Source: an uncultured Bacilli bacterium (GTDB lineage Bacteria; Bacillota_I; Bacilli_A; RF39; UBA660). From it: a stretch of 18,234 nt of DNA. The notes below the pieces were generated by a model. That model made no database searches. It saw only the letters and a program-made list of their open reading frames with translations, and was not told the origin of the DNA. Positions 3,784 through 9,617 of this stretch are shown here, one piece after another; within the stretch, counting starts at the first letter, position 1; every line of letters starts with the position of its first letter. Location of the stretch: contig CANQHE010000024.1 in NCBI GenBank assembly GCA_947623735.1, positions 1-18,234 of the forward strand, read 5' to 3'. The position numbers and the translations under genes were made by a program.

Positions 3784-4149
3784 ATGACAGCAAACGAATT
3801 AATGGAAACAGCTAAAAATAATTTAATTCCTTATATTAATAAAGTATTATTTATTGATAAAATATTAGGAGTTAGATTTGACGGGGATATAACTAATATG
3901 CGTAGAGCTGCTAATTTAGACTTATATGCTAAATTATTATCTGATGAGGAATATAGAAAGTTAATAGTTGATAAAATAGCTACTTATGCAGTTGAAAAAA
4001 ATATTATGTATTATAAAGGTTCTATGCCATTACTTGTTAGAGCTATGAAACAATTTTTAGATCCTTATCAAATTATATTATTAGCTAACTATTTTGATAA
4101 AAATTTAGAACAATCTAATTTAGATCAAAAAGAAGTTAAATTAAAATAA
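3784..4149 (+). CDS. Hypothetical small cytoplasmic protein (121 aa)
   Basis: A strong SD precedes the ATG at 3784. The ORF-track start at 3724 overlaps the promoter and is rejected. It has its own promoter and terminator. I recognise no family motif, and it appears helical and charged. Confidence 0.6.
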   Translation: MTANELMETAKNNLIPYINKVLFIDKILGVRFDGDITNMRRAANLDLYAKLLSDEEYRKLIVDKIATYAVEKNIMYYKGSMPLLVRAMKQFLDPYQIILLANYFDKNLEQSNLDQKEVKLK

Positions 4150-4188: not shown

Positions 4189-4212
4189 GATTTATAGAAT
4201 AGGGTGGATGTT

Positions 4213-4923
4213 ATGGAAGATACTGAGGCTAAAAAAACAAATCAAATAAATATTTTAGCAGCACTTATTATAGTTATGTCACTTATTATTATTGCACTTA
4301 GTGCTTCTTATGCTTATTTTATGAATGTTGTTAAAGAAAATGAAGAGCATAAGGTTAATAAAGGGGTTAATATTACCAGTGGAGAATTGACGATGAGTTT
4401 TGCTACTGCTAATGAGCAATATATAAATAATGATAGTGCTGATTTATTAGATGATGATGATGTTTTAAGTGATAGTAATAATGATTATACAGAATTTAGC
4501 GTAACATTGCCAGCTAGTTCTACAGTAGATTCTGCTACTTATTTCTTTTACTTAACAGATTTAGAAATAACTCAGAATTTTAAAAACAAAGATGTTAAAT
4601 GGGCATTATTTAAAAATGGTTCAACCGCATCTTTAGAAGATGCGGTTGCCAGTGGAGATTTTTCAACAGTTAACATACCTGATGGAGCTGAAAGTGGAAC
4701 TGCACCTGATAGCAAGAAAGCAAAAGATTATTCATTGATGTATAAAGGTGGCGATCAGCAAAGTAATTTTACAATTAAAAGGACTGGTAAAGAAGGAACT
4801 ACTGATAGTTATAAGTTATATATTTGGTTATCGAATGATCCTAATCGAAATCAAGTGGGACTTCTTAATGGAAGCTTAAGTGCTAAAGTAGCATTTAAAG
4901 CCGTTTCATCCGCTGCTGAATAA
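4213..4923 (+). CDS. Secreted or membrane-anchored protein with a SipW-type (TasA/camelysin-like) N-terminus
   Basis: The AGGGTGG SD (4201-4207) favours the ATG at 4213 over the GTG at 4204. The N-terminus has a basic stretch, a hydrophobic core and then SASYAYFMN...VNKGVNITSGELTMSF. This resembles the ...GGTFAYFSD...NNTFAAGTLDL pattern of SipW-processed TasA/camelysin proteins as I recall them. The remainder is Ser/Thr/Asp-rich with no recognisable catalytic motif. Confidence 0.45.
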   Translation: MEDTEAKKTNQINILAALIIVMSLIIIALSASYAYFMNVVKENEEHKVNKGVNITSGELTMSFATANEQYINNDSADLLDDDDVLSDSNNDYTEFSVTLPASSTVDSATYFFYLTDLEITQNFKNKDVKWALFKNGSTASLEDAVASGDFSTVNIPDGAESGTAPDSKKAKDYSLMYKGGDQQSNFTIKRTGKEGTTDSYKLYIWLSNDPNRNQVGLLNGSLSAKVAFKAVSSAAE

Positions 4924-4948
4924 AATAATAGTAATTGGTCTTTGAAAA

Positions 4949-4977
4949 AATTACCTCTTTTAGGGGTAGTTTTTTTA
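4949..4977 (+). terminator. Rho-independent terminator
   Basis: A stem pairs TACCTC (4952-4957) with GGGGTA (4963-4968), including one G-U pair, around a TTTTA loop. It is flanked by an A-run and a T7 run (4970-4976). Confidence 0.6.
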
Positions 4978-5015
4978 AGAATAGAACATTTATAAACTAA
5001 GTAAAACTTTAAATT

Positions 5016-5056
5016 TATATTATTTTTTGTATATATACCTATATTATTTTTTGTAT
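5016..5056 (+). repeat. Perfect 17-nt tandem direct repeat (TATATTATTTTTTGTAT x2) upstream of the AAA+ gene
   Basis: The copies at 5016-5032 and 5040-5056 are identical and separated by the 7-nt spacer ATATACC, giving a 24-bp period. Each copy contains a TTGTAT -35-like hexamer. Confidence 0.8.
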
Positions 5057-5079
5057 GCTTATGTTAGAATATATATAAT
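5051..5079 (+). promoter_or_regulatory. Candidate promoter(s) for the three-gene cassette
   Basis: There are two overlapping options. Option 1 is TTGTAT (5051-5056), a 17-nt spacer and TATAAT (5074-5079), but its TSS would fall inside the SD (5081-5087). Option 2 is an extended -10 TGtTAGAAT (5062-5070) without a good -35, which leaves the SD in the leader. I cannot resolve this from sequence. Confidence 0.3.
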
Positions 5080-5089
5080 GAGGTGGAGT

Positions 5090-7015
5090 ATGAATAAAGA
5101 ATTTACATTACTTACTGAAGATCAAGTTTTTGAAAATAAAATTGGTTTAATAAAAAAAGTGAGTAATAAATGTGCAGTTACAGATTTTGCTATATTGTTG
5201 GGAGCTTGTATTCCTGGTGGTCTTTATGTAGATTATGATCATTCTTTAAAAGGTCGTATAGTGTGGTATTATTTATCATCCGTAGGTGGAGTTCGTGATT
5301 GTGATGTTCGTGTGGTTACTAATTTTGGTGATAAGGCAACGGCTGTTGCTGGTGATAGGGCAGGTGGGGTTCGCCCGGTTTTACCATTATCTGCTATTTC
5401 TGATATCTCTTTGAATGGTGAGAGACTAAAGAAAGGAATTTTTAAAAATTTTTTTTCGAGCAAAGTAGAGAAAGATAGTAAATGTTTAGAAATAGAGTAT
5501 GGAGAATATCCCCAATATGTTGTTAGTACATCTATGGAATCCGAATTGGAACAAGCATATCGTTCTGGTACTATAAGAAAAACGGGAAAAACATATACAA
5601 CGGATTCTAGAAAATGGAACTATAATTCTTCTCCATTTAAAGCTGTAGAACATGAAGAATATGAATATAATGGAAAAAAATATATAAGAGCATATTATAG
5701 AAATACAGATATCTTTACACTTTCAAATGGTAAACAATATAAAGAAGGAGATAATGTTTGGATAGAAGTATCTCCTCTTAAATGGTATGTTGATTACGAT
5801 GCTAGAATTATGTTGTGCAAAAATTTGGTTGTATCGGGAATAAGATTTTGTAATGATCATAGTTATGATGGCAATTTTAAAAATACAGAGATGTACAAAT
5901 TCTTAAATACATATTTTGCAAGAGATATAGAACCAAGTACAATTCATCAAATGCAACAAAAAGAAGAAATCTCGGAACTTAAAGAATCTCGAAAAGAAAT
6001 TAAGAAAAGAGAAAATCCTTATAGATTAAATTTTGGACAAGTAAGTGAAGAAGAAATTATTAGAGGGTCAATCGAAAGTGGAGTGGCGGTCTTTTTACAC
6101 GGGGCATCAAGTGAAGGAAAAAGTGCAAGGGTAAAACAAATTGATCCAGATACTGTAATTATCTATTTAAGAAATGCTACACCTGAAAGTTTAAATGGGA
6201 AAAGTGTTTATAATGCTCAAAAAGGTGAAATGATTGATATAAAGCCTTCCTGGTTAAAAAAATTAGAAGCAAAATGTGAAGCTGAGCCTGATAAATTACA
6301 TATTGTTTTCTTTGATGAAATAACAAATGCTTTACCTAGTATTCAAGGGATAGCTTTTAATATTGTTTTAGATAGAGAAGTAAATGGGATGTGGCAATTA
6401 CCAGAAAATGCAAGAATAGTCGCAGCTGGAAATGAAATGAAAGATTCTTTAGCCGCGAATCAACTTGCTGAACCATTATTTAATAGATTTGCTCATGTTT
6501 ATATCAAAACAACAACTGAAGGATGGTTAAAATGGGCAAGTGAACATAATATTCATCCGGCAATTTATTCTTATATTGCTTATAAAAAAGGTGAAACATT
6601 AAGAAGTAAGTATGATGGAGAAAAGCCAAATGCTGATCCAAGAAAATGGGAAATGGCTTCTAAAATGCTTTATGCTACTGGAAGTCCAGAAATGTTAAGG
6701 GCTTTAGTTGGCGAAGATATAACGAGAGAATTTGTAGAGTTCTGCAATCAACGAGTTATAACATTAGATGATGTAATAAATGGAAATTATAGTGAAAGAG
6801 ATATACAATCATTAAATACTGCGGAAAGATACGCTACGACTATGGGACTTTCTCAAGTTGATGAAGAAAACATGGAGAAAGTAAGAAATTTTGTAATAAA
6901 TCTTGGAGCAGAATTTGGAGCAGTATTTGATTCATTATGGGCCCATGGAGATGAATCTAGATTAGAGTTAATTGCCGAAGTTAGACTTGCTGATTTAGGA
7001 GGTAGAAAAATATGA
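5090..7015 (+). CDS. Fusion protein: N-terminal lectin-like ('WWLRS...GVRPAL'-type) module plus C-terminal MoxR/AAA_5-type ATPase
   Basis: The AGGTGGA SD (5081-5087) precedes the ATG at 5090, and the ORF-track start at 5027 is rejected. ATPase motifs are Walker A GASSEGKS (6101-6124), Walker B HIVFFDE (6299-6319), sensor-1-like RIVAAGN, and LFNRFAHVYI, the arginine region typical of MoxR/AAA_5 proteins. The N-terminal ~300 aa carry FTLLTEDQV...CAVTDFAILLGA...VWYYLSS...GGVRPVLPL and later EYGEYPQ...LKWYV...MLCKNLV...MYKFLNTYF. There is no signal peptide. The stop is TGA. Confidence 0.8.
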   Translation: MNKEFTLLTEDQVFENKIGLIKKVSNKCAVTDFAILLGACIPGGLYVDYDHSLKGRIVWYYLSSVGGVRDCDVRVVTNFGDKATAVAGDRAGGVRPVLPLSAISDISLNGERLKKGIFKNFFSSKVEKDSKCLEIEYGEYPQYVVSTSMESELEQAYRSGTIRKTGKTYTTDSRKWNYNSSPFKAVEHEEYEYNGKKYIRAYYRNTDIFTLSNGKQYKEGDNVWIEVSPLKWYVDYDARIMLCKNLVVSGIRFCNDHSYDGNFKNTEMYKFLNTYFARDIEPSTIHQMQQKEEISELKESRKEIKKRENPYRLNFGQVSEEEIIRGSIESGVAVFLHGASSEGKSARVKQIDPDTVIIYLRNATPESLNGKSVYNAQKGEMIDIKPSWLKKLEAKCEAEPDKLHIVFFDEITNALPSIQGIAFNIVLDREVNGMWQLPENARIVAAGNEMKDSLAANQLAEPLFNRFAHVYIKTTTEGWLKWASEHNIHPAIYSYIAYKKGETLRSKYDGEKPNADPRKWEMASKMLYATGSPEMLRALVGEDITREFVEFCNQRVITLDDVINGNYSERDIQSLNTAERYATTMGLSQVDEENMEKVRNFVINLGAEFGAVFDSLWAHGDESRLELIAEVRLADLGGRKI

Positions 7016-7407
7016 ACAATGATAAGATGAATATGTTAAAAAGTTATCTTTCTATTAATGTTGCACCTGTACTTATTGATTTAGAATTTAGTATTGATAT
7101 TCCAAAATCTATAATAATCCCGGCAAACTGTGAAGTAAAAGAATTAAATGGGCATTATGAAGGAGAGGATTTTCTTGCTCCTAAATGGTATTATGATTTA
7201 ATTAATACAAATGAAGCTAAAGTAATTGTTATAAAGGATATTGATAGCATCTCTAAAGAAGAACAATTAAAATTCAAAGAATTATTAGAGTATAGACAAG
7301 TTTCAACATTTAAAATACCGGAAGATACAAGAATTATTTTAACGGCTAAGAATATAAATAAAGAAACAATTAATGAAGAAATATATTCATTAGTTGCTCA
7401 TATTTAA
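7012..7407 (+). CDS. Degenerate AAA+ core paralog lacking a P-loop (131 aa)
   Basis: AGGAGG (6997-7002) precedes the ATG at 7012, which overlaps the upstream TGA as ATGA. The protein aligns by eye along the whole ATPase core of the upstream protein. The GxxxxGKS segment is absent, FDEI is replaced by KDID, and NRF is replaced by SLV. Confidence 0.7.
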   Translation: MNNDKMNMLKSYLSINVAPVLIDLEFSIDIPKSIIIPANCEVKELNGHYEGEDFLAPKWYYDLINTNEAKVIVIKDIDSISKEEQLKFKELLEYRQVSTFKIPEDTRIILTAKNINKETINEEIYSLVAHI

Positions 7408-7417
7408 GGAATAAATT

Positions 7418-8809
7418 ATGAATTTTGATATTGAATCAATAAAAAGAAAAATGCTTGTAAAATATCCTTTCTTTGGAAGTGTAGTAGCGAATGTAAACTA
7501 TAAAGAAAATAGAGAAATCCAAACAGCAGGTACTGATGGTCAAATAATTTATTATAATCCTGAATTTTTAGGAAAGCTTAAATCTGATGAGCAAGCTTTT
7601 ATATTTGCTCATGAAGTATGTCATATAGCTTTTGATCATATAAGAAGAAGTGAAGGAAAAGATCCGAGAGTTTGGAATATAGCAACAGATGGGGTAATAA
7701 ATCAATTTTTAAAACGAGATGGGATGAAACTTATTAAAGGGTGCATAGATATTAGTGATGCAATAAATTATGATGCAGAACAATTATATGAGAAATTGCT
7801 TAAAGAAAAGCAACAAAAACAAAAGCCAAAAGAAAAGAACTCATTATTTTCTAAACCAGGAGAAGGCGAGCAACAAAATGAAAATCAGTCCCGAGGGCAA
7901 GGATTATCATCTTCTAAACCAGAGCAACAGAGACAAGAGCAAAATTCTTCTGACGGATCAAATTCTCTTGATCGTCAAAATGAAGATGTAGGTCATGATA
8001 CTCATGGTATGTGGGAAGATGCTATAAAACGGCAAAAAGAAGCGGAATCGAAGGTTAAAGGTGAAGAACAAAAACAACAAGAAGAAAGATTACAGCAAGA
8101 AAAAGATAAAATTAGTGAGATGGGAGAGCAAAGGGCTTTTAATAAGAATTTGGTAGAAAAGAGAAAAGAATTAGAAAGGTTAAAGCAAACTTTATCTCAA
8201 CAAGCGATGGGGTCACAATCGGATGGAAGAGGGAGAATTATAAATGATATAGGAAAGTCTAACCCGATAATTGATTGGAGATATGTTTTAAGAAAGACAA
8301 TTCAATATGATGTTGATTGGTCTTATAAAAATGCTTATGTTGAGGATGGAGTTGTAAGGGCTACTTTAGAAGAACAACCAAGGGTCGAAACAGAGATTTT
8401 ATTAGATACGAGTGGTTCTGTCAATGAATTGTTACTTAAAAATTTTTTAAGGGAATGTAAAAATATTTTGCAATATTCAAAAGTAAAAGTTGGGTGCTTT
8501 GATACAGAGTTTTATGGATTTCATGAAATAAGAACTGAAGAAGATATTGATAATATGAAATTTGAAGGTGGAGGAGGAACTAACTTTAATGTGGCAGTTC
8601 AAGCCTTTACTAGAAGAGTAGAAAATAAAATAATATTTACTGATGGAACTTCAAGTATGCCTGATATTCCTATGGATGCTATATGGATTGTTTTTGGTGG
8701 AGCAGAAATTCATCCTAAAGGAGGAAAGGTAATACAAATAAGTAAAGAACAATTAAATAAAATGTGTTCTTATGAGCAAGATATATCTTATAAAGGAAAA
8801 AGTCGATAA
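7418..8809 (+). CDS. Metallopeptidase-like (HExxH, DUF2201_N-type) plus vWA (MIDAS) two-domain protein
   Basis: An AAGGA SD precedes the ATG at 7418, 10 nt after the previous stop. The N-terminal region YPFFGS...TAGTDG..IYYNPEF...FAHEVCHIAFDH contains HExxH at 7610-7624. A Q/E/K-rich low-complexity linker spans about 7790-8230. The C-terminal vWA-like domain has all MIDAS elements: LLDTSGS (DxSxS at 8405-8419), GGGGTNF and IIFTDGTS. Confidence 0.8.
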   Translation: MNFDIESIKRKMLVKYPFFGSVVANVNYKENREIQTAGTDGQIIYYNPEFLGKLKSDEQAFIFAHEVCHIAFDHIRRSEGKDPRVWNIATDGVINQFLKRDGMKLIKGCIDISDAINYDAEQLYEKLLKEKQQKQKPKEKNSLFSKPGEGEQQNENQSRGQGLSSSKPEQQRQEQNSSDGSNSLDRQNEDVGHDTHGMWEDAIKRQKEAESKVKGEEQKQQEERLQQEKDKISEMGEQRAFNKNLVEKRKELERLKQTLSQQAMGSQSDGRGRIINDIGKSNPIIDWRYVLRKTIQYDVDWSYKNAYVEDGVVRATLEEQPRVETEILLDTSGSVNELLLKNFLRECKNILQYSKVKVGCFDTEFYGFHEIRTEEDIDNMKFEGGGGTNFNVAVQAFTRRVENKIIFTDGTSSMPDIPMDAIWIVFGGAEIHPKGGKVIQISKEQLNKMCSYEQDISYKGKSR

Positions 8810-8856
8810 TAAAATGATATAAGGGATTAAGTTTTTTCTTTTTCCTTTTTTTGGTG

Positions 8857-8885
8857 TTTAAATCATATTATATTTGTGATATAAT
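8857..8885 (+). promoter_or_regulatory. Candidate promoter for ftsEX-M23
   Basis: Perfect extended -10 TGaTATAAT (8877-8885), with a weak -35 TTTAAA (8857-8862) at 17-nt spacing. The SD at 8903-8909 lies downstream of the predicted TSS. Confidence 0.5.
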
Positions 8886-8915
8886 GGTTATAGTATGCTA
8901 GTGGGAGGAAGTAGA

Positions 8916-9617
8916 ATGCGATTTATTCAAATCAAAAATTGTTATAAAGTATATAAAAATGGAGTTACAGCTATTGCCGATTTAACACTTAATGTTGATA
9001 AGGGTGAGTTTGTGTTTGTTATTGGTGCTAGTGGTTGTGGCAAGTCGACATTAATTAAAATGCTATATCGTGAAGAAAAGCCAACTAAAGGAGAAGTTTT
9101 AATTGGGGGAATAAGTGTTGGTAAACTTCGAAATAGGACTGTTTATAAACTTAGAAGAAAACTAGGGATAGTTTTTCAAGATTTTAAGTTGCTTCCAAAA
9201 CTTACAGTGTATGAAAATGTGGCTTTTGCCCTTGAATGTATAGGAATGAAGAGTAAAGATATTAGGCCTAAAGTTCTTAAAGCTTTAGAGCATGTTGGAT
9301 TAAAAGATAAAACAAGAAGTTTTCCTAGTGAATTATCAGGTGGAGAACAACAAAGAGTATGTATTGCCCGGGCGATTGTAAATGAACCGAAGTTACTTAT
9401 ATGTGATGAACCGACTGGTAATTTGGACCCTAAGACTTCAAAAGAAATAATGACTGTACTCGATACAATTAATAAAGATTTAGGAACAACTATTGTAATG
9501 GCGACTCATGATAGTGAAATAGTTAATCGTATGAAGAAAAGAGTTATCGTATTAGATAATGGAGTACTTGTAGAAGACCATATGAAAGGAAGTTTTAAGA
9601 TAAGTGAAAGTGTTTAG
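8916..9617 (+). CDS. ftsE: Cell-division ABC transporter ATP-binding protein FtsE
   Basis: The GGGAGGA SD (8903-8909) precedes the ATG at 8916. Motifs present are Walker A GASGCGKST, the ABC signature LSGGEQQR, Walker B LLICDEPTGNLD, and an H-loop ATHD. It is followed by ftsX. Confidence 0.92.
   Translation: MRFIQIKNCYKVYKNGVTAIADLTLNVDKGEFVFVIGASGCGKSTLIKMLYREEKPTKGEVLIGGISVGKLRNRTVYKLRRKLGIVFQDFKLLPKLTVYENVAFALECIGMKSKDIRPKVLKALEHVGLKDKTRSFPSELSGGEQQRVCIARAIVNEPKLLICDEPTGNLDPKTSKEIMTVLDTINKDLGTTIVMATHDSEIVNRMKKRVIVLDNGVLVEDHMKGSFKISESV

Follow-up and report, generated by a model that had tools for sequence, protein, structure and literature searches.

A probable conflict or defence module of gut Bacilli: a AAA+ ATPase with a head that a retroelement varies in related loci, a P-loop-less AAA+ core and a peptidase-vWA protein

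We propose that a cassette of three adjacent genes, A, B and C, in an 18,234-nt stretch of DNA from an uncultured Bacilli bacterium (contig CANQHE010000024.1 of assembly GCA_947623735.1; hereafter the window) encodes a sensor fused to a AAA+ motor (A), a catalytically dead AAA+ core (B) and an effector (C) that joins a peptidase head to a vWA (von Willebrand factor type A) domain. The sensor would be of a kind that a retroelement can vary, and the whole would respond to a cognate ligand. As an account of the system as a whole we consider this the best explanation and give it a probability of about 0.6; by analogy with described systems, A-B-C is probably a conflict or defence module. It is the targeting of the head of A by a diversity-generating retroelement (DGR) in related loci that gives the architecture its meaning. 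The preliminary description of this DNA, made from the sequence alone, had pointed to three closely spaced genes on the same strand, with an ATGA overlap, a 10-nt gap and a Shine-Dalgarno sequence for each, and all of these features can be read in the sequence (Table 1). The A-B-C order and tight spacing are found again in about 70 loci of other species, so that the triad co-occurs widely beyond the window genome and the arrangement is that of an operon, far beyond chance.

The evidence for the retroelement comes from related loci. A scan of one genome per species gave 193 matches among 185,579 species genomes, and 75 loci were analysed. In two relatives (L001 and L002) a bAvd-like gene and an RVT_1 reverse transcriptase (RT) lie immediately upstream of A-B-C. 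An unbiased repeat search located an 80-103-nt repeat of a segment of gene A between Avd and RT, and the RT carries the motif LGNQSSQ, the DGR-RT signature. Across 13 distinct pairs of template repeat (TR) and variable repeat (VR), 137 of the 153 mismatches fall at adenines of the TR, although only 30% of its bases are adenines (Fisher p ~1e-62, unbiased scoring), and loci with the same TR differ in their VR. The same pattern is seen in the proteins, as sister A proteins are essentially identical outside aa 73-93 and only 48-67% identical inside this segment; between L001 and L012, for example, 259/259, 240/241 and 81/81 positions are identical outside the VR and 13/21 inside it. The retroelement of the relatives thus rewrites some 21 codons (aa 73-93) of the head of A by adenine-directed mutagenic homing.

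The state of the DNA upstream of A was counted in 58 non-redundant loci with enough upstream sequence, of which 15 hold an intact Avd-TR-RT, 8 a frameshifted or fragmentary RT and 35 no RT. Full-RT, degraded and RT-less loci are interspersed on the tree, the ATPase, HExxH and MIDAS (metal ion-dependent adhesion site) residues are conserved in the RT-less loci as well, and the loci with RT pseudogenes are intermediate stages of retroelement loss. Such pseudogenes, frameshifted pieces or short fragments of RT, stand directly upstream of an otherwise intact A-B-C in L030 (3896-4311), L037 (3903-4318), L026 (8440-9926), L011, L021, L023, L056 and L062. L042 and L043 carry a full-length RT upstream of A and no TR/VR pair within 800 nt upstream of the RT, the contig of L042 starting too near the RT for this search. 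A conserved open reading frame (ORF) of 162 aa, belonging to no known family, is located just upstream of Avd in L002 (7325-7813), with equivalents in L025, L033, L034, L040 and L049, and may be an extra accessory gene.

The N-terminal head of A, of about 290 aa, is modelled confidently by AlphaFold as two sub-domains, the first with a predicted local distance difference test score (pLDDT) mostly of 81-94 and a dip to 66 at aa 61-70, the second with a pLDDT of 87-96. Among 116 homologues sequence entropy peaks at about 3 bits at aa 75-91, within a protein whose AAA+ domain is nearly invariant. An N-terminal module of ligand-binding type on A, as anticipated in the preliminary description, is supported, with the addition that in relatives this module is a hypervariable DGR target. 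The family of A heads comprises 1598 cluster representatives; many are proteins of 270-350 aa that consist of the module alone, or proteins with several copies of it. Precomputed matches to DUF6273 (PF19789) exist on some A homologues, and 3 of 21 family members match it weakly. In one relative (P0295) sub-domain 1 matches positions 114-171 of the DUF6273 profile, its C-terminal third, and in a protein with tandem modules (P0241) the match runs from sub-domain 2 of one module into sub-domain 1 of the next. From these two proteins we infer that the head of A is a permuted DUF6273-like domain with its VR-bearing part placed first. In the literature DUF6273 figures as a DGR target domain of gut phages that resembles C-type lectins and has its VR at the C-terminus (PMC10743442, PMC11792537). 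In the linker between the two sub-domains the window protein carries an insertion, FKNFFSSKVEKDSKC (window 5441-5485, A aa 118-132), that is present in few or none of the listed homologues.

Behind this head, the Walker A, Walker B, sensor-1 and NRF motifs of A are all intact at the places where they had been predicted, and the Walker A, Walker B, AAGN and NRF motifs are invariant in homologues. There are more than 2400 such homologues, numerous in gut metagenomes, and the 120 listed are mostly full length. The Pfam profile AAA_5 scores 15.7 bits against A, below its cut-off of 22, and is matched by 20 of 21 family members, in every case sub-threshold (best E 0.0038). No usable match came from searching PDB sequences with the family profile of A, and the NCBIfam search gave noise only. 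The AlphaFold model (mean pLDDT 75) returned MCM, NorQ (probability 0.99) and dynein in Foldseek at low TM scores; it is of low confidence at aa 410-420 and 446-470, where helix-2-insert and pre-sensor-1 hairpin inserts would lie. MCM, NorQ and dynein belong to the pre-sensor-1-hairpin/helix-2-insert group of AAA+ proteins, which also holds MoxR. Against viral models it matched N4 gp24-like and 'dynein-related' phage ATPases at a probability of 1.0, and the phage ATPase profile phrog_1297 matches aa 322-612 at 3.2e-47. We conclude that A is a AAA+ ATPase, though a divergent one, and that it probably belongs to the MCM/MoxR/dynein group.

Gene B encodes what appears to be an inactivated copy of the AAA+ core of the same motor. 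By hhalign, residues 7-130 of B align with residues 322-469 of A, the whole of the alpha/beta core, at an E value of 6e-5 and a stated probability of only 65%. Opposite the P-loop of A (HGASSEGKS) B has an eight-residue gap, and it has other residues in place of the Walker B glutamate and at the position that aligns with R466 of A, the NRF arginine. As the P-loop is absent and the Walker B glutamate replaced, B would be a structural AAA+ member unable to bind nucleotide in the usual way. A confident model (pLDDT 88.5, predicted TM score 0.83) gave Foldseek matches to FlrC, NorQ, Rea1, CbbQ, MoxR (2r44), Lon and RFC at a probability of 1.0 and a TMq of 0.6-0.67, and a PDB sequence search with the B profile gave a chance match only. 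The B family has 338 homologues, and those listed all lack a Pfam match and measure 129-133 aa, except for three shorter ones. Alignment and predicted fold together support the view that B arose from the motor of A and is a AAA+ core without catalytic activity, in agreement with the earlier suggestion that the third component is an inactivated copy of the ATPase.

The assignment of C as a peptidase-vWA protein with an HExxH and a complete MIDAS was likewise borne out, as both Pfam domains (DUF2201_N, 1.1e-35, 124.1 bits; DUF2201, 1.8e-13, 51.1 bits) score above threshold and all motifs are present. The profile phrog_1314 matches C at 4.8e-69. By crude extraction HExxH is kept in 59 of 66 C homologues and D.S.S in 60 of 66, and the length of C ranges across loci from 454 to 761 aa. 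In every locus with enough downstream sequence C comes after A, either directly or behind B.

Table 1. Features of the A-B-C cassette in the window
Feature	Position	Strand	Residues, description and basis
Shine-Dalgarno-like sequence of A, GAGGTGGA	5080-5087
Gene A	5090..7015	+	641 aa; predicted DUF6273-like variable-sensor module fused to divergent AAA+ ATPase; ORF, start, homologues, phrog_1297, AlphaFold model
A sub-domain 1	5090..5401	+	aa 1-104; would correspond to C-terminal, VR-bearing part of DUF6273
DGR variable-repeat-homologous segment of A	5279..5398	+	aa 64-103; aligns with VR and TR of L001 and L002
Hypervariable core of A	5306-5368	+	aa 73-93; entropy, VR coordinates in relatives, region identities
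GGTGGGGTTCGCCC	5363..5376	+	conserved 3' end of VR, resembling an initiation of mutagenic homing (IMH) site; one match in window
Low-confidence linker of A	5402..5482	+	aa 105-131; pLDDT 28-49
A sub-domain 2	5486..5938	+	aa 133-283; beta-rich; would correspond to N-terminal part of DUF6273
EYGEYPQ motif of A sub-domain 2	5495-5515	+	motif position
A AAA+ alpha/beta core	6047..6499	+	aa 320-470; motifs, invariant columns, sub-threshold AAA_5, Foldseek
A Walker A, GASSEGKS	6101-6124	+	aa 338-345
A Walker B, FFDE	6308-6319	+	aa 407-410
A sensor-1, AAGN	6422-6433	+	aa 445-448
A FNRF	6479-6490	+	aa 464-467 (NRF 465-467)
A all-helical lid and C-terminal domain	6500..7012	+	aa 471-641; model secondary structure; phrog_1297 match up to aa 612
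Shine-Dalgarno-like sequence of B, AGGAGGT	6997-7003
A/B junction, ATGA overlap	7012-7015		direct sequence reading
Gene B	7012..7407	+	131 aa; AAA+ alpha/beta core without P-loop
Shine-Dalgarno-like sequence of C, AAGGA	7406-7410
B/C junction, 10-nt gap	7408-7417		direct sequence reading
Gene C	7418..8809	+	463 aa; zinc-metallopeptidase head (DUF2201_N) joined by a low-complexity linker to a vWA domain (DUF2201)
C HEVCH zinc-binding motif	7610..7624	+	aa 65-69
C low-complexity Q/E/K-rich linker	7790..8257	+	aa ~125-280; length varies between species
C vWA domain	8396..8740	+	aa 327-441; Pfam DUF2201
C MIDAS residues	DTSGS 8405-8419 (aa 330-334), T388 8579-8581, D409 8642-8644	+	motif reading

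We propose the following model, for which NorQD, CbbQO, midasin and the ternary conflict systems serve as analogues (PMC13036017, PMC7159879, PMC10907252). A, B and C have neither a transmembrane segment nor a signal peptide, and all three are predicted to act in the cytoplasm. A would form a ring that displays the variable heads. When a cognate, fast-evolving ligand, most plausibly a phage or mobile-element protein, binds a head, the ATPase or the assembly state of A would change, and the motor would then engage the vWA domain of C, as motors do in other pairs of AAA+ and vWA proteins. Released or activated in this way, the metallopeptidase of C would be the effector output. B may serve as an inert ring subunit, a cap or an adaptor that tunes assembly.

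A number of observations weigh against this model. With the full-length A model no C-type-lectin fold was among the top Foldseek hits, all of which were AAA+, and as only AAA+ matches came back this search could not classify the head. The order in which ligand, ATPase and protease would act is borrowed by analogy from NorQD, CbbQO and the ternary conflict systems. The preliminary description had placed A in the MoxR class, and while the motifs and the vWA partner agree with this, Pfam AAA_5 is reached only below threshold, the fold matches to NorQ, dynein and MCM have low TM scores, and the class assignment of A is weak. The window copy sits between the housekeeping operons pheST and ftsEX and not in a defence island, the same post-pheT site being used in two other species. 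PADLOC returned no matches for A, B, C and the two ORFs upstream of them. Finally, neither RT nor Avd (by tblastn and HMM search) nor a template-repeat-like copy of the VR is present in the 18 kb of the window, and the window VR shows a mild adenine enrichment against three related TRs (p 0.12, 0.036 and 0.006) at high overall divergence.

The genomic setting bears on a different explanation, namely that the cassette is a housekeeping chaperone whose AAA+/vWA pair matures, or inserts a cofactor into, one host complex while the head of A binds a fixed client. The pairing of AAA+ and vWA proteins, the fold similarity to NorQ and CbbQ, the high conservation of the motor and the position beside pheT among core genes in the window, L016 and L035 would all suit such a role. 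Universal synteny with pheST/ftsEX was rejected, as only L016 and L035 share the post-pheT site; the cassette lies between rpsR and rpmE in L004 and L006, beside a methylase in L002, and, in L001, within a conjugative element that also holds PemK and serine recombinases. A fixed client is at odds with a retroelement that randomises the binding patch, with arrays of paralogs that bear different heads, with these varied sites and with absence from most of the genomes scanned (193 matches in 185,579), and the peptidase head on the vWA partner is left unexplained. We therefore regard a housekeeping chaperone as quite improbable.

Arrays of A paralogs sharing one B-C pair are seen at several loci, for instance in L044 (6593-20349), where [A-A-B-C] is repeated, and also in L008, L009, L050, L054 and L045, with no RT nearby. 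Identity is 96-100% among their motors and 24-71% among their VRs, and in L009 it is only 45% over the head as a whole. Such arrays resemble a germline repertoire of sensors, in which either the motor undergoes gene conversion or a diversifier acts in trans. In L052 (12187-17962) and L060 (7711-11469) the extra A copies are 100% identical in head, VR and motor and differ in the last ~80 residues, which could reflect a very recent duplication or an assembly artefact.

A further explanation is suggested by phages. A and C match phrog_1297 and phrog_1314, whose members are neighbours in N4-like phages such as Acinetobacter phage nACB1, and in N4-like and jumbo phages the order is likewise ATPase, small ORF and vWA-peptidase (nACB1 genes 061-059). 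The cassette might thus be a phage or mobile-element module that serves the element, in rival exclusion or host takeover, the window copy being domesticated or a stranded remnant. The strong matches to both profiles, the adjacency of the ATPase and vWA genes in N4-like phages with a small gene between them, the position of L001 within a conjugative element, and one IMG/VR contig with the full Avd-RT-A-B-C speak for this. That contig, however, is the only one of 2.9 million viral contigs with the fused form, core genes flank most loci, that of the window among them, and no integrase lies close by, and the small phage gene is not similar to B. The phage ATPases, of ~350-400 aa, lack a sensor module, unlike A. 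We consider a module of this kind unlikely as a separate explanation, and it overlaps with our proposed sensor-motor-effector system because the mechanism would be the same. In nACB1 itself (L082, 1375-4158) a MoxR-like ATPase is followed by a 137-aa ORF that overlaps the next gene and by a DUF2201 protein; the 137-aa ORF was rejected as a homologue of B, having no detectable similarity to it. Given the Pfam result for C, the PHROGs label 'HNH endonuclease' for phrog_1314 looks like a mis-annotation.

The window copy has no retroelement within reach. GGTGGGGTTCGCCC occurs once in the window, which therefore holds no template-repeat copy, and with no RT, Avd or TR nearby the sensor of the window is either fixed in its present form or varied by a retroelement at another place in the genome. 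A scan of metagenome contigs for a template in trans, using the 14-nt VR end, was non-specific and gave 120 unrelated, largely environmental contigs, none with A, B, C or RT. The closest relatives of the window are Bacilli metagenome-assembled genomes from rabbit gut (L004, L006, L008, L009, L014, L016, L018 and L022), and no RT is seen across this clade, upstream sequence being sufficient only in the window, L004, L016 and L022. Within the clade identity amounts to 84-98% in the motor, to only 33-57% in the VR-equivalent patch and to 62-84% in the remainder of the head, so that the patch is still the fastest-evolving part of A. Past retroelement activity, a retroelement acting in trans or ordinary diversifying selection could each explain this divergence.

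Loss of the retroelement could also have left the window copy a decaying relic, useless and drifting. RT pseudogenes and RT loss are indeed common in the family, and some loci apparently have a truncated A or C (crude extraction). All three ORFs of the window are intact, however, with complete catalytic motifs, which is evidence against decay; the tight coupling of the genes is preserved, and identities within the RT-less clade (B 67-93%, and the AAA+ range given above) indicate purifying selection. We find it very hard to credit that the window copy is a relic.

The composition of the cassette varies across the family. B occurs everywhere in the Bacilli clade and is absent from a whole sister clade of Clostridia type (L057, L061, L063-L065, L067, L069-L071, L075, L078, L079 and L081), so that the suggestion that A, B and C form a triad holds for the first and not for the second. 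In the sister clade C comes directly after A and the A proteins are shorter (568-628 aa); its records mostly bear the labels Clostridia, Bacillota or Firmicutes, including Zhenpiania and Lentihominibacter. RT was not found there, with 4 of the 13 loci having too little upstream sequence to judge. By a crude motif check the C proteins of L061 and L078 are without HExxH.

Several described systems resemble parts of this one. The closest are the DGR-diversified MoxR-vWA ternary conflict systems with VMAP or iSTAND proteins (Kaur et al. 2020, PMC7159879; Dore et al. 2024, PMC10907252), which also unite a AAA+ ATPase and a vWA protein with a third component in one operon, have a binding domain hypermutated by a DGR, lectin-like there and putatively so in A, include peptidase effectors and are predicted to sense cytoplasmic invaders. 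In those systems, however, the variable C-type-lectin/FGS domain is at the C-terminus of the vWA protein or on a separate target, the third component is a VMAP or iSTAND protein, and the hosts are mainly cyanobacteria, actinobacteria and purple sulfur bacteria; in the present cassette the ATPase itself bears the variable domain, at its N-terminus, the third component is the putatively dead AAA+ core, the vWA partner is a DUF2201 protein with a zincin head, and the hosts are small-genome gut bacteria annotated as uncultured Bacilli or Tenericutes. C-type-lectin-AAA ATPases of candidate phyla radiation (CPR) bacteria (Paul et al. 2017, as cited in PMC10907252) likewise have the DGR target fused directly to a AAA-type ATPase. 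They come from a different lineage and have a different VR class, and the description given in that citation mentions no DUF2201 partner or dead paralog. The 'Midasin' DGR targets (UVR4) in Wu et al. 2018 (PMC5758913) are of this kind too.

The DUF6273 targets of gut phages, among them tentaclins and those of Faecalibacterium prophages (PMC10743442, PMC11792537), would share the head family with A and have the VR at a segment equivalent to the DUF6273 C-terminus, and in tentaclins an N-terminal VR position is also seen, as in A. They are secreted or virion receptor-binding proteins with Ig-like domains, whereas the module of A is apparently permuted, predicted to be cytoplasmic and fused to a motor. 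With NorQ/NorD, CbbQ/CbbO and RavA/ViaA the cassette shares the AAA+ fold class, the MIDAS partner and probably a mechanism in which the motor acts on the vWA domain. Unlike A-B-C these pairs have no variable sensor and no peptidase head, and their metabolic clients are fixed; A, unlike their ATPases, is below the Pfam thresholds of both AAA_5 and AAA_3. DGR-linked MoxR-vWA systems, CPR lectin-AAA targets and DUF6273 as a DGR target are known already. Large DGR surveys may list the present loci as having an 'internal or N-terminal VR and uncharacterised C-terminus' (10.1101/2020.04.01.020958; PMC5758913). The combination of an N-terminal DUF6273-like VR module on a motor, a DUF2201 zincin-vWA partner, a P-loop-less AAA+ subunit and gut Bacilli hosts is one that we have not found described, nor have we found described, in such an operon, a series from active retroelement through decayed RT to none, together with paralog arrays.

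If the proposed system is real, it would extend DGR-varied NTPase sensors to the abundant and uncultured small-genome Bacilli of the gut, compactly arranged in three genes. The best-understood targets of retroelement-driven hypermutation are surface and phage-tail proteins; to our knowledge its use on cytoplasmic NTPase sensors has been proposed from genomics only, mainly for multicellular and CPR bacteria. Loci with an active, a decayed and no retroelement, together with the paralog arrays, form a natural series from which one could learn how a sensor passes from programmable to hard-wired. Its small size makes the module suitable for heterologous testing, and it would give a functional context to the widespread and unexplained ATPase/DUF2201 pair of N4-like phages. 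The window holds the retroelement-less form and is less telling than the family as a whole. Going beyond the model, we would venture, as a possibility rather than as our expectation, that gut Bacilli have a programmable cytoplasmic 'antigen receptor' in which a AAA+ motor bears a lectin-like head that a retroelement randomises again and again or that, in lineages without the retroelement, is kept as a germline array of paralogs; through a dead AAA+ subunit this motor would be linked to a vWA-tethered metalloprotease that carries out the response to phage or plasmid proteins, the window carrying an allele of fixed specificity.

The surroundings of the cassette can be described briefly. The window is AT-rich (~29% GC) with every long ORF on the + strand, in the order pheS, pheT, two small unconserved ORFs, A-B-C, ftsE, ftsX, an M23 peptidase, a GNAT protein, an ORF of no recognised function, tilS and ftsH. 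The start of A is taken as ATG 5090 and not TTG 5027 because homologues start at ATG 5090. The two small ORFs encode a soluble protein of 121 aa (3784-4149) and a protein of 239 aa with one N-terminal transmembrane helix (4204-4923), both without a family assignment; they were rejected as parts of the cassette, as no counterpart exists upstream of it in any related locus, and in L016 the cassette follows pheT directly with no intervening ORFs. The 'non-housekeeping block' in which the preliminary description had placed the genes thus amounts to the cassette and two unconserved ORFs only. Its promoters could not be supported, with 18 promoter-like matches in 4800-9000 against 22.6 +/- 5.5 in shuffled sequence; the candidate at 8857-8885 is a 10/12 consensus match, and the consensus scan found no match of at least 9/12 directly upstream of 5090. 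After the 239-aa ORF, AAAAAATTACCTCTTTTAGGGGTAGTTTTTTT (4946-4977) combines a hairpin and a T-run in the manner of an intrinsic terminator; it was not listed by the consensus scan, and no comparable hairpin/T-run structure follows gene C. Finally, a database protein (P0001, ENA) has Q at residue 555 of A, where the window has R (6752 region), and this difference together with a second NCBI record indicates two near-identical assemblies of one population.

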